Origin: Trypanosoma brucei
Lineage: Eukaryota
Assembly: GCA_000002445.1 (NCBI GenBank)
Contig: CM000208.1
Coordinates: 1,376,001 to 1,440,000, forward strand
Length of the DNA stretch: 64,000 bases
Direction: 5' to 3'
Shown here piece by piece: positions 39,846 to 61,724 of this stretch; position 1 is the stretch's first letter, and the number at the start of each line of letters is the position of its first letter. The translations under genes were made by a program, and so were the position numbers. Under the pieces are notes generated by a model, which saw only the letters and a program-made list of their open reading frames with translations, did not search any database and was not told where the DNA came from.

Positions 39846-41030
39846 ATGAAGGTGAATTGTTTTCTACCTTTGTTGCTGTCAGTCAGTTATTGCACTTTAG
39901 CCGACGATAGCGCGCTCACACTGAAGGCGGGGGAAAGTATCTGCAAACTGTCGAAAAGGTTGAAGTCAGTGTTCAAGTATGTAGACCGAAGAACGGATAT
40001 TGCCTTGGAAAAGATCTCCGATCTTGAGGATATGTTGGAAGTGGTGAAGTTTAAGATTGTGAAGGGAAGGTCGAATAATACGAATAGAGAGTGCAAGGAT
40101 GTCTCCGATTTTATTATGAGTAAAGCAACTTGGTTGATAAGAAAAGGGAGGAAGGAGGTTGATAGATTGAAATACGTGGGGCTTGCGGCAATTGGAAATG
40201 CGGGACTGGCGGCAGGGAGGTTAGATGAGATGGTCAATGTGTGGAGGAGGGTGTACAGTGCCGGTACTGGAAACTTTTGCATTGGGGATGAAGGGAATGA
40301 AACAAAGAGGACTGCACTTCCAGATTGCTATCTGACAGATTCGGAGAGGGATGACTTTACTGGGATTGATGAAGGGGACAGGTTAGAAGATATAAACAAT
40401 GTTACCGCTGATGCCTTTAATGAATTATTGGAGTTGCATACAGAGGATGATTTGTGGAGTAGCCCATTGACGAGTGGCATGGACGGTAAGGACTGCCGTC
40501 TAACAAATGCCAGGTCTGGCGGAGGTTACCTCGTCGGAGAGAGCCCATCTGGTAATTTGTTTTGGGGAGACGGGGTGCTTGGGGTGAAGAGGGGTAGCCG
40601 AGGGTATGACGGAAGGACGTCGAATGTAAGGAGCAAATTACTCATAAATGATGTAGTGTGGGAAGCAGACACTGTAGAGCATACCCCTATTATAAGGAAT
40701 GTACACGAAGACTTGCAAAATTTTTTTATCGACGCAGAAAAAATTGATGAATTGGTGGGGGAGACTGGGGATAAGTGGAATTGGGAGTTCTCTCATGAAA
40801 TTGGAAGTCACAGTGGTCATCCCTCAGAGTTTGATGATGAGGAGACTGACGATGTAGCGGACAACACATCGGCAGTGGAAGAGGCAGTAGGGAAGGCATT
40901 TGTGGGGTTGGGAAATAGGGAAGCGTTTCAGGAAGAGATGGTGTTGGAAGAGATGGCGTTGTGTGGAGAATGTAATATTTACACTTATTACCAGTTGTTT
41001 TTCTTAGTTTTCGTTCCTGTTTTTGTTTGA
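39846..41030 (+). CDS. Predicted surface protein. Signal peptide, helical N-terminal domain, Cys pattern, and a C-terminal hydrophobic tail (GPI-signal or TM-like). Paralog A of a tandem pair.
   Basis: MKVNCFLPLLLSVSYCTLA signal peptide. C-terminal YYQLFFLVFVPVFV. Motifs shared with the downstream paralog: CKLSKRLKSVF, AAGRLDEMVNV, GGGY, WGDGVLGV, NDVVWEA. Confidence 0.6.
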   Translation: MKVNCFLPLLLSVSYCTLADDSALTLKAGESICKLSKRLKSVFKYVDRRTDIALEKISDLEDMLEVVKFKIVKGRSNNTNRECKDVSDFIMSKATWLIRKGRKEVDRLKYVGLAAIGNAGLAAGRLDEMVNVWRRVYSAGTGNFCIGDEGNETKRTALPDCYLTDSERDDFTGIDEGDRLEDINNVTADAFNELLELHTEDDLWSSPLTSGMDGKDCRLTNARSGGGYLVGESPSGNLFWGDGVLGVKRGSRGYDGRTSNVRSKLLINDVVWEADTVEHTPIIRNVHEDLQNFFIDAEKIDELVGETGDKWNWEFSHEIGSHSGHPSEFDDEETDDVADNTSAVEEAVGKAFVGLGNREAFQEEMVLEEMALCGECNIYTYYQLFFLVFVPVFV

Positions 41031-41140
41031 ATCAGTTTCACTTGTTTTGCATCACCGTAGACCAGGTGTCTTTAACATGTGTATATCTTCGGTGGTGGTG
41101 TGTTAGCCTTCCGTGCTGATTTTTTTTTTTGATAGTAGAG

Positions 41141-42304
41141 ATGCTCAAGTTTGTTCTTGTGTTAATACTGATTATTGTTGGTGGTGACTATTGTTATCGT
41201 GGTAACGCTGGGGTGGCTTTGAAGTTGCAAGCCGTGAAGTCCGTGTGCAGAGCATCGAAAAAGCTTAAATCGGTTTTTACATTTGTGAAGGACAAACTGG
41301 AAAAAGCGGATAGAAACTTTTACGAGGTGAAACTGCTGCAAAAGCTACTCCGCTTGAAGCTTCTAACGGAATGGACTAAAGGAGAAAAGTGCGGGACAAT
41401 GAGGGTTTTTCTTACCAACATAAGGGCGAAGGAGAGAAATATGCGACGGGAACTGTCAGCCTTATGGAAAATGGGGAGGAGAGTTGTGGGTGAGGCAGGG
41501 ATTGCAGCTGGGAGACTGGACGAAATGGTGAATGTGTTCGCACAGTCGTACGGCAACGAAAGTGAAACGAAAACGTGTATTGGGGGTACAAATGGCAGTC
41601 CTATGGAGGTTTTGAAAAGGTGCTACGCTAACAATTCCAAAACAGGGGAATGGGAGTTCCTCACAATTACAGAGGGGGGAGAACTGTTTGACAACGAGTT
41701 TGAGACAAACTTGGAGACCACGCTTCACGTTATGTTGTCGCTTGGGAATAGAGCCGATCCGTGGTATGACTATGGAAAGGATATGGGGTGTCAACTCACT
41801 AAAGGAGCCCCTGGGGGTGGGTACATGAAGAGCCATAACCTCACAGAGAACATCATTTGGGGTGATGGCATACTCGGGGTGAGCAAAAATGGAAATGGAA
41901 CTACCGGCTCCAAAGGAAACACGAGAGATGGGAAATATGCTCACGATGTCGTGTGGGAAGCAGAACCCACGAAAAATAATCCCACTCTCCGCAGGGTGAT
42001 CAAAGATTTTAGTGCATTCGAAGAATTATTTGCGAAGGTGGAGTCTTCCCACAAGCTGTTAATAGATGCATTTCTCCAGGAGAAATTGTTTGCTGAGGAA
42101 TTCGAGGCTCTTGCGGTTAGAACTAAGAAGAAAAGAGTGATCATTGGCGGTTCCACCTCCACCAAAAATAAGCAGAACAATGCCTTGGGGGGTAGTGGTG
42201 CCGGCGATGATAACGAAGTGAGTATGGAAGAGTGGTTGTCGCAAGTGGATGGGGGAATTGTAGAAGAGAGGTTGTTGGCGGAGGAAATGAAGGAGTGTAC
42301 GTAA
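41141..42304 (+). CDS. Paralog B of the tandem pair. Signal peptide, helical domain and the same motif set, but no C-terminal hydrophobic anchor. It may be secreted or a decaying copy.
   Basis: MLKFVLVLILIIVGG signal peptide. CRASKKLKSVF, AAGRLDEMVNV, GGGY, WGDGILGV, HDVVWEA. Ends in EEMKECT. The track start at 41129 is TTG. ATG at 41141. Confidence 0.6.
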   Translation: MLKFVLVLILIIVGGDYCYRGNAGVALKLQAVKSVCRASKKLKSVFTFVKDKLEKADRNFYEVKLLQKLLRLKLLTEWTKGEKCGTMRVFLTNIRAKERNMRRELSALWKMGRRVVGEAGIAAGRLDEMVNVFAQSYGNESETKTCIGGTNGSPMEVLKRCYANNSKTGEWEFLTITEGGELFDNEFETNLETTLHVMLSLGNRADPWYDYGKDMGCQLTKGAPGGGYMKSHNLTENIIWGDGILGVSKNGNGTTGSKGNTRDGKYAHDVVWEAEPTKNNPTLRRVIKDFSAFEELFAKVESSHKLLIDAFLQEKLFAEEFEALAVRTKKKRVIIGGSTSTKNKQNNALGGSGAGDDNEVSMEEWLSQVDGGIVEERLLAEEMKECT

Positions 42305-45144: not shown

Positions 45145-45940
45145 ATATTTTTATTTTCCAAAACAAAATTTTATTGGTATTAGTGTGATAGAAGATCAAC
45201 TAATGGACAAGCAGGAAATGTTGATTCTGTTATTTTCTTTACTGTTTCTTCGCAACCCAGCGGAAGCTTTCGAATCGCGTTCGTATGTAAAGCCAGATGG
45301 AGACCCGGACTGCACAAATTTGACAGGTGTTTCTCATGTTCCCTATCACAATGATATGGATGATTACGCGGAAGAAAATTGCACAAAAATAAAGACACCG
45401 TCTCATAATAAAGAGCAGACGGGCAACTGCACTCTTTGCGTTGGTCATTACATCTGTCATTCTCTGTATAAATGTGTGAGTAAAGACTTTGTCAGGTTTT
45501 TTGGAAATGGTAGCCAGGAAGAACCCGCAAGCGAAGAAAAAAAGGACAACGAGTCGGCTCTAGATGCTGCTGACACTTCCTCCTCAGGAACTGGAACTGA
45601 GTCTCCTGAAGAAACCACTGGCGGCAGAACCAATGTTAGATCTAATGTGGAAGATGTGAAGGACGGTAAGGAGAATGTGACCTCTCCTGAAGAAGAAAGC
45701 AGGGGCGCTCCACACGGTACCGCGGTTTCCCCTCTCGAGGAAAGAAGCCCGAACCCTACTGACAGAAAGAACCTACCACATGATCGCTTCCTCGCTTTAT
45801 TTACTGAACACTTTTTAAGCAATTCTCAACTTGTGTTGAATTTAAACAATAAGATTATGCTTTCAGCGTTATTTTTCTTGCTATAAAAAAACGAGAGATA
45901 AACTAGTTTGCTAACTGAAAACAATCAGAAATAGAGAGTG
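45145..45940 (+). repeat. Tandem duplication unit 2.
   Basis: See unit 1. The ATG-to-ATG offset is 1274 nt. Confidence 0.8.
45203..45886 (+). CDS. Small GPI-anchor-type surface protein, copy 2. The signal peptide, Cys core, acidic spacer and tail are identical to copy 1. The N-terminal mature segment of about 60 aa and the region before the omega site are diverged.
   Basis: Alignment of the two translations by eye. ATG at 45203 within track ORF 45113..45886. Confidence 0.65.
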   Translation: MDKQEMLILLFSLLFLRNPAEAFESRSYVKPDGDPDCTNLTGVSHVPYHNDMDDYAEENCTKIKTPSHNKEQTGNCTLCVGHYICHSLYKCVSKDFVRFFGNGSQEEPASEEKKDNESALDAADTSSSGTGTESPEETTGGRTNVRSNVEDVKDGKENVTSPEEESRGAPHGTAVSPLEERSPNPTDRKNLPHDRFLALFTEHFLSNSQLVLNLNNKIMLSALFFLL

Positions 45941-47445
45941 ATATCGTTCATACGTGTTTAATTGTATTTTTTTACCAATATTGCTGTATGTTTCTTTGAA
46001 CATTTAGTGGCTTGTAGTATTGTACGGTAGTGGAAAAGGTAGACACCTAATGGGGTTTGTACTTCTGTTGATGGTGGTGTAGTGTTGTTAAAGGATAGCG
46101 CTATTGACAGGGGATTGCGTGTAACGAGGGAATGGAAAATGTGTTTGGGACTAATGGAAGGGAAACGTAGATAACATAATGTAGTGAGGTCGCGTAATTA
46201 ATGCTCATTACGGTAGCATGGCTTCGTGGCGGGGTCTGATGGATACGCAACGGCATGCGTGGGGTGAACAGGGGCTATGTTACCCAGGCAAATACGGAGA
46301 GAAATTGTATGCCACTGCATCGTTGCGCGGTGTAGGAAGGATATTGACCACATGGGATGTTATGTTGTACGAATCTGGTTTCTCTTTTGTCCTAATCTCC
46401 TAGTTGGGGGTGGAAAGGGAATCTGCTAGAGGAAACGGGGAGAGGCATTATGTCTGCGGCGGTTTCGTTGGTCGAGGGAAATGGGTATGGATATTAGATC
46501 CGACTTGAGAGCCGCTCTTCACTACACCAGATTGCGGAGCTCTATCCGAAGGAAAAGTGCACCGGCACGGTGGGCAATTGGGTAGAGTGCTCAGAGTTGT
46601 GAGTATATGCTAGGGTGTATTTGCATATTTCCTGCTGAACCAAAGCGGGAGACAGGAATAAGCGGGGATAATGGGATGGTTTCTCGTGGTTTGTACTGCT
46701 ATGCGCGGATGTTTTGTCAGGTGTGGACGACGGGTTAACTGAGGGGCGGCGTTTCCCGAAAAGAAAAGTGCGGAGCGGATGCGACGCAGATATATTTTTA
46801 AGGCGCGTAATTGGCAGTGCGGTAAGCATACTGAGGGATATCGGAAAATAGGACAGTGAATATGCGGAGGGGAGTGAGCAATGGCAACTCCTGAAAAATG
46901 AAAGACCAAGAGGCGACGCCGGTACGACACACGAGGAAAGCACAGAAGCATTTTCGCGTTGTTGGCCATCCAGCAAGCTTTTCCTCCCATCCATACAATG
47001 CTTCCGCTGCCCCTTTCACGTACATTGGTCCCCGCAGGTGTAGTTCCTGTGGATAATTCTCTTAGGGTTAAGTTCGATTTCTCCGCGTGAAGTGGTGTAC
47101 CCCCAAAATTCCCCATTATTGTTCGTCCCACCTTTACAGTTTGCGGTTTCCTTGCAGGCCTCTTTTTCTACACATCCGTAATCAAATTTGTTTGCCGCTT
47201 CCGTGTCAATGGATGTTCATTGGGTGCCACCGCAGAAGTGGTAGGGGACTCTGGGGCGAACGCTGTTTTTGACAAGTTCCAGAGTTTTCTGATTTTGTTA
47301 CTCTTTGTTTTAGTGATTTGTCGATCCATGACCTTCTGAGGCAGCTCTACGTTAGCCCCCGTTTCATATAGTTGTTGTTGTTTTTCCAAACGCTTTGCGG
47401 GCGTTTACGCACTCCTCGACGTCCACTCCCCGTATTGTACGGCCT
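45941..47445. other. Convergent strand-switch region, a candidate Pol II transcription termination zone, between the plus-strand and minus-strand polycistronic units.
   Basis: All credible CDSs upstream are on the plus strand and all downstream are on the minus strand. Intergenic strand composition flips from T/C-rich on the plus strand to A/G-rich on the plus strand across this point. No tRNA-like structure found. Confidence 0.7.
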
Positions 47446-48039
47446 CTACGGGCAGGTCGTGGAGTCTCCAAACCCCTTTTCGTGCATTTGACACCTAAAC
47501 TTTTTCGCTTTCACAATGAAAACTTCCGGGGGAATCTCGGAAAGAGGTGGTATAACTGAGGCGGTTGTGCAGGTTCGAAGGCTTTGCCCATCTATAGCAA
47601 GGTGATTTCCAGCCGTACCGTTCATTTCATGCACCGACACTTCGCCCCAGAGAAAATAGCTCGGTTGAGCGGCATCAGCAACAACAACAAAAGAGAGGAA
47701 AAACGATCGTAGTTGCTCCACCTTCATGTTTCCCCAACCCGCGCCGCAGGCATGAGGAACGCAAGCCTGCGCTACACAACCAGTAAGGGTGACCGCCACA
47801 GTTCCCTGCACTTGATTCATTTCGAAATGCAAAATTGCGCGTCCTCCTCGCCGCCTGCAAAAAATAGGATCAACGCTCAGTTGTTTTAGTGGTGTTCTGT
47901 AATCCTGGCGCAGAAAAGTGGTGTTAAGATTTAATTCCTTCAGCCCCCAAGCATCTCGTGACTGCAAGAAAATGAAGAGAAGCATTACAACACCGACATG
48001 CCACCAGCGAACGCATGAGAATAAGACAGCGCTGGGCAT
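47446..48039 (-). CDS. Hypothetical protein with a signal-peptide-like or TM N-terminus (197 aa).
   Basis: ATG confirmed on the minus strand at 48039. MPSAVLFSCVRWWHVGVVMLLFIFLQS hydrophobic start. No family recognised. Confidence 0.4.
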   Translation of the reverse strand: MPSAVLFSCVRWWHVGVVMLLFIFLQSRDAWGLKELNLNTTFLRQDYRTPLKQLSVDPIFCRRRGGRAILHFEMNQVQGTVAVTLTGCVAQACVPHACGAGWGNMKVEQLRSFFLSFVVVADAAQPSYFLWGEVSVHEMNGTAGNHLAIDGQSLRTCTTASVIPPLSEIPPEVFIVKAKKFRCQMHEKGFGDSTTCP

Positions 48040-48405
48040 GGTTCCTCCATCAAGACGAAAGCTGAGCGCGACAGCAAGATTGGTGCAAAGGAAAGTTCGA
48101 AGAAGATATGGGCCAAGTCAAGTGTACAGAACAGAGCGACTCCAAAGGTCGGTGCGTGCGTGCAGTCGGCCCCCCCCATAAGTTTCATAAGGGATAAAAT
48201 ATCCCTCTATATCCCACGCCAAGCGTCATTTCCTCTTCTTGCGTACCTTCGCGTCGCGTCTTCGAAGCCATCCTCCTCCAGAACAGCGATACGCGTTTGC
48301 GATAGGACAGCTGAGGTTCCATGCACAGGTTAAAGCGTTATTTTTTTTTTTTGGTTCTCCGAATCCCACCTCCCCCCCTCCAGCCGCTCGTTGTGGCGTA
48401 GCTTC

Positions 48406-48993
48406 TCATTTGCTTCGCGTCAACCCAAGAGTGCAGCGGCGGTCACACAAAGGGCGACGATAACGAGGAAGGGAAGATGGGCTTTTAAGAAGCGACCGGC
48501 CGTGAATGGCAAGGCCCCATGCAATCCAAAACATATTCCACGGCCGCCGTGGTCCGTTTGTCATTTCCTCCAAAACAGACGCGACGTAAGAGTGGCAGTT
48601 GTTTGTGAAGAAATTGTACGTTTGTGTTTTGCGGAAACGCGTCGTAACGCCGCTTAGAGCTCTGTCGTACTCCTCCGTCTCCCGTCGCCTTCTCTCTTCT
48701 ACATCCCCCGACAACAAACCACCCGGAGGAAATCGGGAGGATGGAACGTACATGGCTGAAATGTCCCAATATTTTACGGGGTTTCCAAACAACATGTGAT
48801 CCACTCCAATGCAATACGACCCCTCAAAGTCAAATATTCTGCCAGTGGAATCACATATTCCCACGTGACCCACAAAGGGAAACAACCACGAGACCAGGGG
48901 GATATCGGTCCACACAATGCAGAACGGGTAACGCTCCGGGGTCACAGAGGAAGTTGAGGTTGTATTGTCACTCATTGCGTTCCGCCTTGTCAT
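48406..48993 (-). CDS. TMEM222-like protein (DUF778 family).
   Basis: HVGICDSTGRIFDFEGSYCIGVDHMLFGNPVKYWDI...FTNNCHSYVASVLEEM...WNMFWIAWGL parallels human TMEM222 (HVGICTS.G.I.DFAGPY.V..D.MAFG.P.KYW...CDNCHSHVALALN). First ATG at 48993 (the track start at 48999 is GTG). Confidence 0.6.
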   Translation of the reverse strand: MTRRNAMSDNTTSTSSVTPERYPFCIVWTDIPLVSWLFPFVGHVGICDSTGRIFDFEGSYCIGVDHMLFGNPVKYWDISAMYVPSSRFPPGGLLSGDVEERRRRETEEYDRALSGVTTRFRKTQTYNFFTNNCHSYVASVLEEMTNGPRRPWNMFWIAWGLAIHGRSLLKSPSSLPRYRRPLCDRRCTLGLTRSK

Positions 48994-49062
48994 TACCACT
49001 GTTGCGTATGGCGTATTTGGTGTTCCTAAACTTGAAGTAAAAATATTCTAAAACCCTTGAAA

Positions 49063-49079
49063 GTGTGTGTGTGTGTGTG
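49063..49079. repeat. (GT)8 microsatellite.
   Basis: gtgtgtgtgtgtgtgtg read directly. Confidence 0.8.
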
Positions 49080-49466
49080 GAAGTGAAAATGAAGCTCGTA
49101 GACTCCAACAGTCCTCACCTAGTCCTCTATTTCTCCATTTAAGGTGAATGTGACAGCGCGGATGAGAAGCTACCATATAAATTCATCGCTTTGCGTCGTT
49201 CGGACAATGAAATGCGATGCCTACGCACCCTCATCGGATGGAATTAACCGCTTCTGTCTTGTTTCTCACGTCTTTTTTTTTTGTTTTGCAGGTGGAGGAA
49301 CGACATGATTCATCAACATTGGTCAGCCTATAGCATCCCCACATCTCCTCATCTCGAAAGGAACACAGAGTGCATGATGTAACATTCCAAATAAACAAAA
49401 TAAAATAAACGGCAAGAAATAAAAAAAAACAATTGCGAAAACAAACACGGAGCGAAAGTGCCGTGA

Positions 49467-49489
49467 CCCCCCCCCCCAAAAAAAAAAAA
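49467..49489. repeat. C11 homopolymer directly followed by A12, in the intergenic region between the minus-strand genes.
   Basis: cccccccccccaaaaaaaaaaaa read directly. Confidence 0.85.
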
Positions 49490-49759
49490 TTATGAAAAAA
49501 TTAGTCACCACACCTTTGTAACATATATATATCCCGCATGTCACCTTCGACAATACTGCAACAAAAGTGACAATAATATTATTTGAACATCGCAATGATG
49601 CGCCTTCAGTGCAACAGAAACAAGGGTGACAGAAAATCACCCTTGACTTTCCATGGGCCTGTTTTCCACTCTCAGAATCTGGCTTTATTGAATGCATTTC
49701 TTCGCCGATGGGCCCTCTCCTAAAAATTCCGTAACGATAGCAAAACTATTTTTTCGCCC

Positions 49760-50569
49760 TCATTCAGTAAACAAGTAATTCCGTACATTGGCCCTACCAA
49801 ACGATATGCTAGCAACCTCCTCCGCGATATTTCCATTTGCGGCACCGACCAATGTTAAGAGCGGCATCAGGTGCTCGTGTTCACGGAGTGGTTGCGCTTC
49901 AGTGAAGCCCTCCATTGTTTTTACACGCTCCATCGCCTTCAGGCGGTCCTCAGGAAGCGTCGCAACCTCATTTTTACATAGAATGGAAGTCAGTGCATCT
50001 CCAAACTTCCTCCCAGCTCCCTCGCGGTTAAAATGCGCAAAATGGTGCATGGTGGAGCCACTTCCAATAAACATTACAGCATCAGAGCGTAAGGGACGGA
50101 GAGCCTTCCCCATGCGTATGTGCTCTGCAGGATCACCGGATCGCAACACAGACAGAGGTACCACAGGGATATTGGCTTCGGGGAACATGATCATGAGTGG
50201 GACAAACACGCCGTGGTCAAGAAGCCGCTCGGGTTCCATTTCCGCATGAAATCCTCCAACCGTGAGAGCATTCACAATGGCAGCAGCAAGTGGCGCATTA
50301 CCCGGCACGGGATATCGAAACTTATAGCTTTCTTCTGGAAATCCGTAGTAGTCAAACAGTAGAGAGGGCCGCTCCGCTCCGCCAACTTTTGGTGTATTCG
50401 TCTCATAATGTGCAGAAATCACAACAATGGCTTTCGGAAGGCCAAAACGATTCTCTAAAAGTTTCCGGTGGCTCTTAAGGGCATCAACCAACATTTTGTG
50501 CCCCTCATCCCGCAATAACGGCAAGGGGCCACCGCCATGACACACAAATAGTGAGGGGTACACCGTCAT
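49760..50569 (-). CDS. Class III extradiol ring-cleavage dioxygenase, LigB family (DOPA 4,5-dioxygenase/YgiD-like).
   Basis: MTVYPSLFVCHGGGPLPLL... ISAHYETN...DHGVFVPLMIMFPEANIPVVPLSV..FIGSGSTMHHF has the LigB/YgiD hallmarks. The track ORF extends 55 codons upstream through poly-F/L read-through of the UTR, so the start is set at the ATG at 50569. Confidence 0.8.
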   Translation of the reverse strand: MTVYPSLFVCHGGGPLPLLRDEGHKMLVDALKSHRKLLENRFGLPKAIVVISAHYETNTPKVGGAERPSLLFDYYGFPEESYKFRYPVPGNAPLAAAIVNALTVGGFHAEMEPERLLDHGVFVPLMIMFPEANIPVVPLSVLRSGDPAEHIRMGKALRPLRSDAVMFIGSGSTMHHFAHFNREGAGRKFGDALTSILCKNEVATLPEDRLKAMERVKTMEGFTEAQPLREHEHLMPLLTLVGAANGNIAEEVASISFGRANVRNYLFTE

Positions 50570-50599
50570 GAGTAGTAAGAACTTTGGTAATTTGTTTGT

Positions 50600-50700
50600 T
50601 CCATCAACCGCGATACCGCATAATATTGAAACAACAAAAACAGAACGAAATGAAACAAAAAGAAACAAAAAAAAAAGAAGCAACAAAAAAATGAATAGAT
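50600..50700 (-). promoter_or_regulatory. Polypyrimidine tract on the minus strand upstream of the dioxygenase gene. Candidate trans-splicing signal.
   Basis: The plus strand reads aacaacaaaaacagaacgaaatgaaacaaaaagaaacaaaaaaaaaagaagcaacaaaaaaa, which is T/C-rich on the minus strand. Confidence 0.4.
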
Positions 50701-52348
50701 AAATCCGCGGCAGTAAAGATTTTAATGTTACCAATTAGATAGTTGTGTGCATTGGAGGCGCTCCAAGCACTCAAACAACAGAGCGAAGCCTCCGTTCGTG
50801 GATGAAGTTGTGTCACATAAAGTAAGAGGCCGGCACGATACAAACGAACAAACAAAACGCACGTATTCACATTCAAAAACCCATCGCCCACAGCATGACA
50901 CCGAAAAGTGACCTCTGTAACGACGATGGCTACGACCGCAACTACTACCATAAGAGGCCGCTACATATATCCAAATAAAAACAACAACACCAACAACACA
51001 AAAGAGGAGTGCTGTATAACATGCGCCCCATTGGATCACCTGTTTCCTATGTTTTCCTTCCATTACTCCTTTGCTCCATTACAGTCCTCCTCCTCCTCCT
51101 CCAAACTCACGCACACACACGCGTACACACTCTGTTCACGCCTTCTCCTCCGTGCACAAGGCACAAAAGGAAGAAAAAAGAAAAAGAAAAAAAAGTACAC
51201 ATACATAGAGTCTCCACTAAACTAACGGATTCAACTTAACGGAGCGCCCTATACATTTTGCACATTTGCACTCGTTGGCGGCAAACAGGAATAACACCCT
51301 TCTGTTACATCTGTATTTTCCCCTCATTTATTTCTCTTCCTTACCCGTCATTCCAAGGGAAAGTGTGCACCATAAAAGACAAAGGGTCAAAAAAGAAAAG
51401 ATCCAGCACGGTGTCATTGTGAAGGGAGATACCGTGCACAAAAGGTAAAGCACACAATCTTCAAGGGATAAAAACAAAAGGAAGAATTGTGCGAAAAAAG
51501 GGGGGAAACGGTTGTAACAGGAAGGAAAAGGAGGGAAAAAAAACAAAATTGAAGCTCACGGTGACGGAAGTAGGCGATAACACACAAAAAAAAAGTATTT
51601 CGCAACGAGAAGCAACGAAAAGACGACACGCCGACGGGGAAAATGTGCATAAGGAAGCGCAATCTCAACTTAAGTTGTTGAATGTACTGCATCTACTGCC
51701 GTACCTCGTGCAAATAACACCAACAACAACATCCCCCCGCAAAAACATTTATTCCTTCATCCAACCGCTGATGCGCTGGCATTGGCGTTTAGCGTCTCTT
51801 GTTTCCTCGCAGTGCACCGTTGTTGTTTCAATAAGGAGAATATTTGGCCTTTTAACCCGAACACATGCGAAGAGATACACACATGCACACACGGAAAAAC
51901 AAAAACACCTCGGGAGGGCTCGCTGCTGCCCTGTAGAAGCGCAAGTCAACGATCGATACATTCAAACCTTTCCATCGTCAACAACCGTTGGGAGGAAAAG
52001 AAACAAAAAAAACACGAGTGGGCATACAGCCTTACGTGTTGTATATATTCTTTGGTACGTGTCGGTCTATCCGCCTCCTGTACCGTACGCGCCATGATAC
52101 GCGGTTCCAACTACACGGAAGCACGTTAACCGCACAACCTGCAATTGTCGGAGGCAATGGACACGAATTCCCTTAAGCGGTAATTTCTGGTACAAAAGTC
52201 GCTCAGTAAACCAGTTAACATTCCCCCTTTGATCGCCCATTTTGTTCCCTCTTGTTTTCGTTCATTTCTCTTTCTTTCCATTCTTCTATACAAGGTTACG
52301 GTTCGGACGCCTTTTCCCTTGTGCTTTTTTTTGTAATATTTATTTGCT

Positions 52349-52448: not shown

Positions 52449-53096
52449 TTACAACTTGCTCTTTTCGATACGAAGAAGTTCATCCACTTTTGTGGCCACT
52501 GATTTGAGCACAACGGGAAGCGGAGGGTTGCCATCAACTTCCAACACCTTCCCACGGTAATATTCCATGAGGGATGCCTTCTGCTTCAGATAAACCTGCA
52601 TGCGGCGTCTGTGCTTTTCCCTGTTGTCGTCTGAGCGAATCAAAAGACGACCCATAATTTCTTGCGGCGACGGATCACTCTTTAGGTTGTAAATGCGGCC
52701 GGTCACTGGGTCTAAACGGCGGAACACGCAACGTTCCTCAAGTTTAATCTCGTCAACATCGATAAAAATCATCGCATCCACCTTGAACCCATTGGCGGCA
52801 AGCGTCTCCGCCTGTGCTCGGGTGCGTGGGAAACCATCAAGGAGAATTCCCCTTCCTTTTGTGTCAGGGCGTTGAAGGCGGTTAATAATCATGGCAACAA
52901 CCACATGGTCTGGTATTAGTTGTCCCTCACTCATAAGCCCCTCAACCTGCCGACCGATTGCACTACCCTTCTTCACTTCCTCTCGTAAGAGATTCCCCGT
53001 GCTTACGTGAATAAAATCATAACGACGGACAAGAAACTCGCTCGCAGTCCCTTTGCCACATCCCGGCGCTCCAAATAAAAGGATATGCAGACCCAT
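52449..53096 (-). CDS. ADK: Adenylate kinase, long type with a LID domain. The C-terminal -SKL is a PTS1-like glycosomal signal.
   Basis: P-loop GAPGCGKGT. LID RRLDPVTGRIYNLKSDPSPQEIMGRLLIRSDDN. NMP-binding region. Ends ...RIEKSKL. ATG confirmed at 53096. Confidence 0.9.
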   Translation of the reverse strand: MGLHILLFGAPGCGKGTASEFLVRRYDFIHVSTGNLLREEVKKGSAIGRQVEGLMSEGQLIPDHVVVAMIINRLQRPDTKGRGILLDGFPRTRAQAETLAANGFKVDAMIFIDVDEIKLEERCVFRRLDPVTGRIYNLKSDPSPQEIMGRLLIRSDDNREKHRRRMQVYLKQKASLMEYYRGKVLEVDGNPPLPVVLKSVATKVDELLRIEKSKL

Positions 53097-53901: not shown

Positions 53902-56277
<2,376 letters not shown>

Positions 56278-57745: not shown

Positions 57746-59476
57746 TTACTTTGATAGCATTGGGGCGAAAGTAAAATAAATTCCTGCTACCCACACAAAG
57801 AGACTAAAAATAATGTACGCGTACCACCTGCAGTCGAAGGGGTTATCGGGGAATGTACAAAATATTTTCATGTAGTCACAAAAAGAAAGTTCTGCGCTCA
57901 CACCATCAACATCAGTACTGCTACGTGCATTTTCCACACGCTCGGTGAAAATGGCGAGGAGAGCGGGAAGCGTTACCATAAGGTGTATGCCAGTAAATGC
58001 CCCCAAGAAACCAGCGAAAAGGCTAACAGTCTCCGCACCAATACTTGCGGCGATGGCTCCAACAAAAATGTTAAAGGTTACGCGAACCATCACAAACATC
58101 GATTTCTCTCTGTGAAGCTCAATGCCCAACGCCCTGTCTAGTAACTGTATGGCTGGCACAAACTGGATAGGGTAGCCAAAAATGAGACTCAATCCGAGCA
58201 GCACTTGCATGAGCACCTTCATTGTGCTGGCTGGCATCGCGAGTACCACCGATGACTCCAACGCTTCCCCATAAGCTAAATAACCAAGAACACCAAAGAA
58301 AACATATAGTGCAACAATGGAGGCGTTAACGTACTTTACCACTTTTTCAAACTTCGGGTAGTCTTCGGGAGAAATGCTGTTTTCTACAGGAAGAACCACA
58401 CCAATACCTTCTAGGGAAAACACGTGGCCCGAAATAAAGAGAAATATGCGCATTGTCGGCACAATTGCCCACACTTCAGGAGCCACACCGGTTGTTGAAA
58501 GGGAACACACCTCTTCGGCTGTTGCTCCCGCAAGCACCACCATAACAAACACCGCTGCAATCATTGACATGTACGCCAGGAAACCCAGGCGATGCGAAAC
58601 AAAGGTCATGAATGTCACCACCACAATACTAATAAAAACGAACAGTTTGTACAAGTCATGACCGGTAAAGAACTCTGCAAACAGTGATGAGGCATACTGT
58701 ATGTACACTACACAAAACCCAAACTGTGTAAACAACAGTGAAAACTTGGCAAAGTGCATCCACAACTTTCCCAATACATACTTTACCACGGCCGGGTAGG
58801 TACGTGCACCTGTGTGGCCAATAATTTGCTTGGCACGAATAAGAGCCAACACACAGTCAATGATTAACCATCCCATCAGCACAACAACTACCCCGCCCAG
58901 AGCATATCCGGCGTCTCGGTAATAAGCTGGAAGAAGAAAAACACCCGTACCCACATTTCCCTTGAATATGTGAAAGGCAGCACGACCCAGCGAGGTGTAC
59001 GATTGTCCGCTGCTGGGGACGAAGGTGCCACTCCGAAAGGAGCACTCCAACGCGTCTGTTAATTGCGGTCCAAGAGAGTGTCTGTCCAACTCGTCACAAT
59101 CCTGTACACTGCCATATGTGAAACGGGTAAATCCGTCACCAACTGATGCCAAATCACTACCCCTTGAAGAACTTGGCCCAACCCTTTCTTTAGCACACCC
59201 CGGCGTTAGTGGTTGATCGAGCGATTCACCACTAAAGCGTTCCCCTTGGGACACTTCTCGAGGGGTTGCAGTTATTTTCGGACTTTTGAGTTGTGGTGAA
59301 AGCGACAGACGCGAATCAGCGGGTTGGGTTTGCGACGGTGACGCCACAGTTCGTGCTGAGGCAGCGCCTGAAATAAGAGTTCCACTTCTGGAAATGTCGG
59401 CGCCTTCCCCTTCCGGTTGAAAAATGGCGTCAACGGGTACCTCATATGGGGGGTGAATACCCTCACGACTTGTCAT
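57746..59476 (-). CDS. Amino acid transporter (AAAP/AAT family permease) with a hydrophilic N-terminal tail of about 150 aa.
   Basis: About 11 hydrophobic segments after the Ser/Pro-rich N-terminus. Conserved AAAP-like start of the core (FKGNVGTGVFLLPAYY). 576 aa. ATG confirmed at 59476. Confidence 0.8.
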   Translation of the reverse strand: MTSREGIHPPYEVPVDAIFQPEGEGADISRSGTLISGAASARTVASPSQTQPADSRLSLSPQLKSPKITATPREVSQGERFSGESLDQPLTPGCAKERVGPSSSRGSDLASVGDGFTRFTYGSVQDCDELDRHSLGPQLTDALECSFRSGTFVPSSGQSYTSLGRAAFHIFKGNVGTGVFLLPAYYRDAGYALGGVVVVLMGWLIIDCVLALIRAKQIIGHTGARTYPAVVKYVLGKLWMHFAKFSLLFTQFGFCVVYIQYASSLFAEFFTGHDLYKLFVFISIVVVTFMTFVSHRLGFLAYMSMIAAVFVMVVLAGATAEEVCSLSTTGVAPEVWAIVPTMRIFLFISGHVFSLEGIGVVLPVENSISPEDYPKFEKVVKYVNASIVALYVFFGVLGYLAYGEALESSVVLAMPASTMKVLMQVLLGLSLIFGYPIQFVPAIQLLDRALGIELHREKSMFVMVRVTFNIFVGAIAASIGAETVSLFAGFLGAFTGIHLMVTLPALLAIFTERVENARSSTDVDGVSAELSFCDYMKIFCTFPDNPFDCRWYAYIIFSLFVWVAGIYFTFAPMLSK

Positions 59477-60113: not shown

Positions 60114-61724
60114 TCACAAAACTTTTGAGTGTGATATCACCGCAGGAAGTGAAATCCGCAATGCTTCGAATGCCCTCGGATGTTGCAAGATGACCGCCCG
60201 ACATGCCACATCGTTCCCAAACCCCCACAGAGCTTGGCTACCATCGAGAAGAATACGATCCACATCTTTGTGCTTGAGCATAATATCAACCAGTAGACCC
60301 GTGATGACGGAAACTCCTTTTGATCCACCACCCATGCCAACATCCCGCGACGTCACATACATGTTCACCGCCCTCGGGTTTTGGGCTATGAAACCAAGGA
60401 AACGCATGACAACCTCCATTAAAAGGACGTTATCCTTTCTCTCCTGCGCCAACCGCACAAGGTGTGCAATTACGCCTTGGCCGACAAGTATCTCAGCATT
60501 GCGAAGATTCGTCGCTATAAGGGAGTTAAAAAAGGCGAAGCCGAACTTCTGCAACATAACTGTTCCTTTAAATGTACGTAGCGTTGAGTGAACCAACGTC
60601 AGGGCACGCTCTTCGACGTCCCTTTCAAAATCTAGTTTGTCATTTCCCGAGCAGATGTTGTGCAAGAAGAGGGTAGCATGTTCTGCGATCTGTTCATTCT
60701 TCGGGAATTTTTCCATAGCATCAAGAATCATTCCAAGGGACTTTCCTCCACCGAGACACAGACGTATCAACTCTTCCGAGAAACTAATGTTCCACAGAGC
60801 TTTAATGCACGCAAACACCACTTCCTCGTCATCAATGAAGATATCCAATGCATTAAGAATTGCTTGTGCACCACCTTCTCTTACAAGTGTATTCAGAATC
60901 TCCCGCTGTGCCGCGTGCTCACACAGTTTCAGAATGGTTTCCCGAGTAATTGCACGGCTCTTAAAGTTCGCGGTGATGGAAAGAATCCGTGTGATATCAT
61001 TCTTGACGTACCATGTATTCCACACTTCCTCAAAAGTTTGGTTCCGATTGATGGACCACAATTGTTTGTTCGCAAAGAGGTGTTTAACAATGGCAGTTAT
61101 GGACACCACATGATTGACGATGCCAGTGCGTGGATGGCGGACTTGCGACTGGAGTCCAATGAGCTGACCGCGGTCATTAAATGCTGGACAACCCGCAGTT
61201 CGCACATCCCTGGTCGTTTTGAGGTAAAACAAGTCATCACGGTGACGGAGCACCTCAACAAACCTCTTCATCACTAAAGGAGGATCTGCACTACCAGCAG
61301 CCGGCGCTATGTCCCCGACTTCCGGATCCGCCTTACCCGAGTCACTGCTCTCTGCGGGATGCTGCACGACCAAAATGATATCCCCTTCAGTCACAGGGGC
61401 CCATTGATCTTTCGTCAAGGGTATTGTGACGGGTACGACATTAAGAAGACCAGCCTCCTCACAGGCCACCAAGCAGTAGTCCATGTACTCGGGGTATGCT
61501 GCGGCAAAAAAGTACTTTTGCGGTAGCAATTTTACTTCAACAGGTTTCTTCTTGGTGCCCTCAAAGAAAATGGCGGTCAGTGAAGCGCACGCGTCAGCTG
61601 TTCCTACGACATGCGTGGAAGTAAGAAGCATCCCCGGTGAGACAAGAGTGGCTGTGCCCTTTTCCGGGATGCGACAAACGGCAGGAATATTGTGAACATT
61701 GCTAGTTGTAAGAATTGTGGCCAT
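60114..61724 (-). CDS. Protein with an N-terminal trypsin-like (chymotrypsin-fold, DegP/Trypsin_2-like) domain fused to C-terminal armadillo/HEAT-like repeats. The nucleophile position appears substituted.
   Basis: GTATLVSPGMLLTSTHVVG matches the His region. DYCLVA matches the Asp region. RTAGCPAFNDRGQLIGLQS aligns with the GNSGGPLLNLDGEVIGI Ser region, with Ala at the Ser position and an adjacent Cys. ARM-like repeats follow from about aa 230 (EGGAQAILNALD...ACIKALWNISFSE...). ATG confirmed at 61724. Confidence 0.6.
   Translation of the reverse strand: MATILTTSNVHNIPAVCRIPEKGTATLVSPGMLLTSTHVVGTADACASLTAIFFEGTKKKPVEVKLLPQKYFFAAAYPEYMDYCLVACEEAGLLNVVPVTIPLTKDQWAPVTEGDIILVVQHPAESSDSGKADPEVGDIAPAAGSADPPLVMKRFVEVLRHRDDLFYLKTTRDVRTAGCPAFNDRGQLIGLQSQVRHPRTGIVNHVVSITAIVKHLFANKQLWSINRNQTFEEVWNTWYVKNDITRILSITANFKSRAITRETILKLCEHAAQREILNTLVREGGAQAILNALDIFIDDEEVVFACIKALWNISFSEELIRLCLGGGKSLGMILDAMEKFPKNEQIAEHATLFLHNICSGNDKLDFERDVEERALTLVHSTLRTFKGTVMLQKFGFAFFNSLIATNLRNAEILVGQGVIAHLVRLAQERKDNVLLMEVVMRFLGFIAQNPRAVNMYVTSRDVGMGGGSKGVSVITGLLVDIMLKHKDVDRILLDGSQALWGFGNDVACRAVILQHPRAFEALRISLPAVISHSKVL

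Follow-up and report, generated by a model that had tools for sequence, protein, structure and literature searches.

The gene at positions 60114 to 61724 on the reverse strand of the 64,000-nucleotide stretch of Trypanosoma brucei DNA analysed here (assembly GCA_000002445.1, contig CM000208.1, forward-strand positions 1,376,001 to 1,440,000; hereafter the window) raises the question of whether a protein that carries the landmarks of a trypsin-like peptidase, yet lacks the serine of its active site, still cleaves peptides or has put its protease fold to another use. The preliminary description of this DNA, made from the sequence alone, left two possibilities, i.e., a chymotrypsin-like protease with a Cys nucleophile, as in the viral 3C proteases, or a catalytically dead protease fold reused as a binding module on a scaffold of armadillo (ARM) repeats. 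Our results favor the second of these; the protein is likely a pseudoprotease, mounted on an ARM scaffold, whose cleft has been retained for binding and which would function as an adaptor or a scaffold. The coding sequence is an uninterrupted open reading frame (ORF) with an ATG start, specifying 536 amino acids and a stop codon, and the start and the length of the protein are consistent with those of 31 orthologues.

The motifs that had been quoted as the landmarks of a trypsin-like domain all occur at the expected places, with the His segment LLTSTHVVG at residues 33-41, the Asp segment DYCLVA at 82-87, the nucleophile loop RTAGCPAF at 175-182 and the subsequent RGQLIGLQS at 185-193. The fold assignment is borne out by a hidden Markov model (HMM) search with Pfam, in which the full 144-position profile of Trypsin_2 matches residues 23-191 with 29.2 bits (curated cutoff 27.6); the same family is matched by all 31 orthologues (best E 2.8e-12). 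The ARM-like repeats proposed for the C-terminal ~300 residues are also recovered, by Pfam matches above the cutoffs to ARM_LRRK2 (residues 277-445, 33 bits vs. a cutoff of 26.2), which recurs in 28 of the 31 orthologues, and to Arm (27 bits vs. 20.6). A search of NCBIfam gave zero matches, and among the sequences in the PDB the ARM region of LRRK2 was the only match (E 8e-4). The AlphaFold2 model, built on the alignment of orthologues, has a mean predicted local distance difference test (pLDDT) score of 84.1 and a predicted template modeling (pTM) score of 0.80. It contains β-strands across residues 16-208, which form the double β-barrel of the chymotrypsin fold, and nineteen helices across residues 231-533, arranged as tandem three-helix repeats of ~42 residues that form a superhelix. 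Its high pTM score suggests that the two modeled domains are packed in a fixed arrangement. Structures matched by the model are those of SplE, V8, MamO, and Deg2; matches to viral structures were generic, mostly to serine proteases, and no better than those to cellular serine proteases.

Evidence for the pseudoprotease reading comes from the catalytic positions of the N-terminal domain (residues 14-220; 61065..61685 on the reverse strand, as are all segments of the protein given below). A profile of this domain (alignment A2) searched against 1.84 billion representative proteins retrieved 387 proteins at E ≤ 1e-3, mostly canonical trypsin-like proteases. Sixteen matches at E < 1e-30 are orthologues and the next relatives appear at E ~1e-17; where the source of the latter is named, it is a bacterium (Paenibacillus oralis, or a metagenome-assembled genome of Planctomycetota or Pseudomonadota). 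The residue counts are based on an alignment of all 185 retrieved sequences with the domain HMM; group A comprises the 48 orthologues from kinetoplastids and diplonemids, and the sequences referred to as relatives are non-euglenozoan, with 65 of their alignments being complete. The protein of T. brucei has H38, D82, R175, and A177 (codon GCG) at the four catalytic positions. The Ser nucleophile (Ser195 equivalent, position 177) is present in all 65 relatives but in only 5 out of 47 group A sequences, where Ala (37), Gly (3), or Phe (2) otherwise occurs. The preliminary description had thus correctly placed Ala at the Ser position, but its Cys one residue downstream is in fact two residues downstream (A-G-C, C179). 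It had also not noticed that the Gly of the oxyanion hole is lost as well: at the position two before the nucleophile (Gly193 equivalent, position 175) Gly is found in 63 out of 65 relatives and in none of 47 group A sequences, which mostly have Arg at this variable position. The Asp (Asp102 equivalent, Asp82; 61479..61481), which is followed by Y83, C84, and, further on, C88, is largely kept (116 out of 119 relatives, 45 out of 48 in group A). The His (His57 equivalent, His38; 61611..61613), which in alignments falls on the His of the LMTNNHV segment of active relatives and of LLTNAHCVE in Deg2, is present in 120 out of 121 relatives but in just 19 out of 47 group A sequences and so, although present here, is not conserved among the orthologues. 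Its substitutes across the clades are Q, K, R, V, T, A, S, L, Y, or N, and a change from H to Q is seen even inside one close clade. All four catalytic residues together are found in 62 of the 65 complete relatives and in 0 of the 48 group A sequences.

This count depends on the register of the alignment in the nucleophile loop, and here two comparisons agree. The degenerate nucleophile/oxyanion loop VRTAGCPAFN (residues 174-183; 61176..61205) aligns without gaps with PGSSGSPVFN of the active relatives, and an independent profile alignment with Deg2 gives the same register (RTAGCPAFND vs. GNSGGPAFND). A177 is consequently aligned with the Ser of both GSSGSP and GNSGGP, and a canonical Ser does not appear at the nucleophile position after alignment. 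The substitutions noted in T. brucei also hold across the kinetoplastid and diplonemid orthologues (Ala in 37 out of 47, Cys in 44 out of 47, with Ser in the remaining three, which are divergent), and the flanking G178 and P180 are invariant.

An indexed search yielded the 31 full-length homologues, with 34-57% identity, whose named sources are Trypanosoma species, Strigomonas culicis, and Trypanoplasma borreli, many of the others being of metagenomic or read-assembly origin. Entropies computed over the alignment of these 31 sequences, which contains 45 invariant columns, show that the protease-like domain is more conserved (mean 1.02 bits) than the ARM domain (1.86 bits). Of all 13-residue segments of the protein, the nucleophile loop itself, VRTAGCPAFNDRG, is conserved best (mean entropy 0.41 bits); next come the C-terminal helix ITAIVKHLFAN and then the Asp strand MDYCLVAC, in which D82, Y83, C84, and C88 are invariant. 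G190, Q192, and Q194 are also invariant and S193 nearly so; the strand G190-Q194 may be the counterpart of the substrate-binding strand of S1 peptidases. The C-terminal helix of the protease fold and the linker behind it (residues 209-230; 61035..61100; helix 209-218 in the model) carry the invariant H215 and F217. The armadillo solenoid (residues 231-533; 60126..61034), with ~6-7 repeats, is recognizable by the H3 motifs ALW311-N312, LHN356, and ALW500G, of which W311, N356, and W500 are invariant and N312 is mostly kept.

An acidic, variable insertion in the second barrel (residues 124-152; 61269..61355), with a mean entropy of 2.67 bits, is modeled with low confidence (pLDDT < 50 at residues 127-152). 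It has six Asp and Glu vs. one Lys or Arg, is rich in Gly, Ala, and Pro, and has no counterpart in the bacterial relatives. Located between strands of the second barrel, it appears disordered and varies in length and sequence among the orthologues, reaching up to ~60 residues in Strigomonas.

Taken together, these data would make the protein a chymotrypsin-fold pseudoprotease judged from its sequence, with the fold kept, the catalytic residues substituted and the substitutions under purifying selection, and it would best be filed as a non-peptidase homologue of the S1/Trypsin_2 peptidases because the defining catalytic features fail. We envisage a soluble two-domain pseudoenzyme of kinetoplastids and diplonemids, whose N-terminal domain would derive from a bacterial-type Trypsin_2 serine protease that kept its double β-barrel and lost its catalytic machinery. 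The Ser nucleophile would have been replaced by Ala177 and the oxyanion Gly by Arg175, with the general-base His kept in Trypanosoma and dispensable in other lineages. With these losses, the protein is not expected to cleave peptides by a serine-protease mechanism. The former active-site loop and the adjoining strands are the most constrained part of the protein and, therefore, the cleft has most likely been kept for binding a ligand or peptide. It would act as a natural Ser-to-Ala “substrate trap,” in the way that engineered Ser-to-Ala proteases do, the ARM solenoid with its 6-7 repeats would add a second protein-binding groove, and the whole protein would serve as a non-catalytic adaptor or scaffold. 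Its location is presumably cytosolic; neither a transmembrane segment nor a hydrophobic, signal-like N-terminus is predicted (maximum Kyte-Doolittle mean over 19 residues of 1.46). Targeting to peroxisomes or glycosomes, which was considered in view of the processing proteases Tysnd1/Deg15, was rejected since the C-termini of the orthologues vary (KVL, AAS, RVT, KSL, and others) and do not fit a type 1 peroxisomal targeting signal. A role as component of the solved axoneme structures of T. brucei was likewise dropped, no PDB chain beyond the ARM domain of LRRK2 being similar in sequence.

Some observations weigh against a loss of activity and have to be set against the above. All Trypanosoma sequences keep the His-Asp pair and have an invariant C179, which is compatible with a non-canonical activity, and the extreme conservation of the loop would be equally expected had the loop gained a new chemistry. 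Moreover, one Trypanosoma-like sequence (P0006, from a Logan contig of 1721 bp, sharing 73% identity with the protein of T. cruzi) shows RTSGCP in the loop and is the sole one of the 48 orthologues that combines His, Asp, and Ser, with Arg at the oxyanion Gly position. One alternative is that the protein is an active, non-canonical cysteine protease, in which Cys179 is the nucleophile and His38 or His122 the general base, in the manner of the viral 3C and 3C-like proteases. Consistent with this are the retention of C179 between an invariant Gly and an invariant Pro, the intact H38 and D82 in every Trypanosoma sequence, the invariant H122 and the conservation of the nucleophile loop, which exceeds that of any other element of the protein; annotators at NCBI have named some of the orthologues “serine/cysteine trypsin-like peptidase.” However, C179 aligns without gaps with the residue two positions after the Ser of the active relatives, and not with the nucleophile. 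In PA-clan proteases this residue lies behind the oxyanion loop, outside the cleft. In the relatives it is always small (S 44, A 17, G 2, C 1, V 1), and Ser takes the place of Cys in the three divergent orthologues. The general base fares no better: His38 is replaced in 28 out of 47 orthologues, and its invariance throughout Trypanosoma carries little weight because 47% of the domain columns are equally invariant there. A relocated catalytic His in the “QHP” motif (Gln121-His122; 61359..61364) was considered and rejected, since the active bacterial relatives possess the same motif (Q121 in 47 out of 48 group A sequences and 101 out of 111 other relatives; H122 in 48 out of 48 and 107 out of 111, respectively); being equally kept where the triad is normal, it does not represent a replacement base. 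With the oxyanion Gly also gone in all orthologues, and with the matches to viral folds being generic and chiefly to serine proteases, we consider this first possibility of the preliminary description unlikely. The viral 3C and 3C-like proteases (clan PA(C)) share with our protein the chymotrypsin fold and a Cys in the nucleophile loop, but their Cys occupies the Ser195 position and is accompanied by a conserved His, whereas here that position is taken by Ala, with the Cys at +2, and the His varies within the family.

The conserved cysteines could have another meaning, namely that C17, C84, C88, C179, H122, and H215 form a metal-binding or redox-sensing site, for which the fold would have been reused as in MamO. 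Four conserved cysteines and two invariant histidines within a domain of 200 residues would fit such a site, as would the presence among the best structural matches of MamO, a degenerate trypsin-like domain that was crystallized with Ni. However, the active bacterial relatives already have C17, C88, Q121, and H122, which are thus an inheritance older than the loss of activity. C84 and C179 do not co-vary, as P0040 combines T84 with C179, and P0039 and P0042 combine C84 with S179. C84 and C88, four residues apart on the predicted strand 83-88, would by the geometry of a strand be too distant for one metal ion. A metal or redox site is therefore improbable, and C84-C179 and C84-C88 were both discarded as an obligate disulfide or metal pair in view of the lack of co-variation and the unfavorable strand spacing. 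It is scarcely credible that the gene is a decaying, non-functional remnant of a protease gene, which the loss of catalytic residues might suggest, because its ORF of 536 codons is intact, full-length orthologues with the identities given above exist in Trypanosoma, Strigomonas, Trypanoplasma, and diplonemids, with their 45 invariant columns, and the protease-like domain is conserved better than the ARM domain.

Among known proteins, the closest sequence relatives outside the Euglenozoa form a bacterial Trypsin_2 subfamily (e.g., Paenibacillus oralis WP_128633833.1; E ~1e-17) that is characterized by AVCRI, IIQHP, and GSSGSPVFN. It shares with the protein of T. brucei the AVCRI strand, the QHP motif (IIQHP), the PVFND motif, and the C-terminal helix, and in both the Asp strand ends in Cys (LDFTIVAC vs. 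MDYCLVAC). Its nucleophile loop reads DTEPGSSGSPVFND, of which the SGSPVFND part resembles the loop of our protein. It differs in that His, Asp, the oxyanion Gly, and Ser are kept (62 out of 65), in the lack of the acidic insertion, and in its C-termini, which consist of nuclease (often EEP or Endonuclease I), NACHT, or other domains and not of ARM repeats. HtrA/Deg proteases (plant Deg2, 4fln, and Deg9, 5ila) are similar in the protease core only; our protein has neither their catalytic Ser nor their oxyanion Gly, and a PDZ domain was not found in it with Pfam at E ≤ 10, its C-terminus being formed by the ARM repeats. A functional likeness, with no specific sequence relationship, exists with the chymotrypsin-fold pseudoproteases MamO (5hma/5hm9) and SMIPP-S of the scabies mite (3h7o); further examples of such pseudoproteases are haptoglobin, HGF, azurocidin, and the serine protease homologues of arthropods. 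These known pseudoproteases are, however, secreted S1A proteins or, in one case, a bacterial magnetosome protein, whereas the protein described here would be intracellular, belongs to another subfamily of Trypsin_2 and is fused to ARM repeats. Conversely, ARM scaffolds (the ARM domain of APC, p120, β-catenin, plakophilin, importin-α, the ARM domain of LRRK2, and ZYG11B/ZER1) have no protease-fold domain; their sequence identity with our protein is only 10-16%, and none of the named ARM proteins emerged as its orthologue.

The protein is not a categorically new kind of system but a probable lineage-specific pseudoenzyme with a testable function, i.e., a case in which a protease fold has probably become a binding module within a eukaryotic cell. 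Its domains have already been flagged automatically in the databases, where the orthologues are named “Trypsin like peptidase domain,” “serine/cysteine trypsin-like peptidase,” or “LRRK2 ARM repeat domain-containing protein”; the second of these labels is no evidence for protease activity. Being parasite-specific, with no human counterpart, it adds to the uncharacterized conserved genes of these organisms.

A possible partner of the cleft deserves mention. Ecotin binds protease clefts in a substrate-like manner, for which the catalytic Ser is not needed. Trypanosomatids encode three ecotin-like inhibitors, ISP1, ISP2, and ISP3, even though trypsin-fold S1A peptidases have been described in the kinetoplastid and Leishmania literature as absent from the genome, and ISP1 acts inside the cell in the homeostasis of the flagellum and the flagellar pocket, a role that is unexplained (PMC3440592, PMC2659362). 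This absence makes the inhibitors puzzling, and our results show that trypanosomes through to diplonemids do have a chymotrypsin-fold protein, which is strongly conserved among them, yet it is probably a pseudoenzyme and is fused with an armadillo scaffold. An orthologue also occurs in Strigomonas. The dead trypsin-fold cleft might then be the intracellular partner of ISP1, ISP2, or ISP3, as an ISP receptor or an ISP-regulated adaptor; this idea, prompted solely by the coincidence of the two, is very unlikely to be correct, but it makes the protein a concrete candidate for ISP pull-down tests.

The combination of the two domains had been regarded as uncommon, and among the matches listed from the profile search the joint occurrence of Trypsin and ARM domains is indeed limited to the Euglenozoa. 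Within these, group A is accompanied by a second, paralogous Trypsin+ARM family (group B; P0055, P0064, P0065, P0069, P0071, P0072, P0078, P0086, P0087, P0100, and P0168), whose members are 600-880 amino acids long and have the AVCRIPGRG N-terminus in common with group A; P0055 aligns with the T. brucei ORF over 509 residues (E 3e-31). The triad has decayed differently in group B, with the Asp changed into Gly or Pro, the His mostly lost and Ser or Thr kept. The placement of group B in the Euglenozoa depends solely on one transcript (P0072) of the diplonemid Hemistasia phaeocysticola, a species from which a fragment was likewise found in the cluster of one group A protein, and a profile search with the group B alignment returned just the query and one unrelated ARM protein. 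Since Hemistasia is represented in both groups, the duplication probably occurred before kinetoplastids and diplonemids diverged.

The closest active relatives, P0048, P0049, P0057, P0063, P0067, and P0070, are bacterial and combine a trypsin-like protease with EEP and Endonuclease I nuclease domains, and in Neochlamydia (P0079/P0185) the same protease subfamily, with an intact triad, is combined with a NACHT NTPase and HEAT repeats. These fusions resemble conflict or defense systems. A 1248-amino acid gene model of Diplonema papillatum (KAJ9467317.1; P0043; JAPJBO010000082.1, L001 3001..19919) combines a USP/UCH deubiquitinase domain with Trypsin+ARM. It was not used as a link to ubiquitin, as this intron-bearing model of 17 kb, in which the NIPAVCRI N-terminus is missing at the junction, may consist of two merged genes.

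The gene itself is probably Tb927.10.5790, a number that we take from the numbering convention and the identifiers of the flanking AAT12 and VCP genes. This identifier is absent from searchable papers, and searches by domain names, Pfam accession, or this probable gene identifier revealed no publications on the protein. Downstream on the same strand lie genes for an amino-acid transporter (57746..59476), a CDC48/VCP ATPase (53902..56244), an adenylate kinase (52449..53096), and a LigB-family protein (49760..50734). The transporter has Ser or Thr at all 17 positions that have been published as phosphosites of T. brucei AAT12 (Tb927.10.5780; PMC13524880), and the ATPase is TbVCP (Tb927.10.5770; PMC6233060); the window, therefore, is located on chromosome 10 of T. 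brucei, which also bears out the kinetoplastid source assumed in the preliminary description. Because transcription in kinetoplastids is polycistronic, these neighbors have no implication for the function of the protein. Two ORFs on the opposite strand, 60637..61113 (158 amino acids) and 60660..61277 (205 amino acids), fall wholly within the gene; they are putative, being known from a mechanical list of ORFs alone.

Elsewhere in the window, all ORFs of at least 250 amino acids are on the forward strand up to position 45886 and on the reverse strand from 49760 on, and the GC skew changes sign at ~48 kb, so that the region of ~45900..49700 looks like a convergent strand-switch region. No tRNA genes were found in the whole window with ARAGORN. 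Two adjacent ORFs of ~390 amino acids each on the forward strand (39846..41030 and 41129..42304) match the N-terminal domain of A-type variant surface glycoproteins (VSGs; Trypan_glycop; E 8e-11 and 2.5e-13) and are probably tandem VSG-related genes in a chromosome-core context; the GC skew of the window peaks (0.36) in the 2-kb bin where they are situated (40001-42000). Just before them, the product of the forward-strand ORF 36511..38652 matches NatA_aux_su, the auxiliary subunit of N-terminal acetyltransferase A (E 1.5e-81), and contains TPR repeats, and the AT skew of the 36-38 kb bin is unusually positive (0.21).

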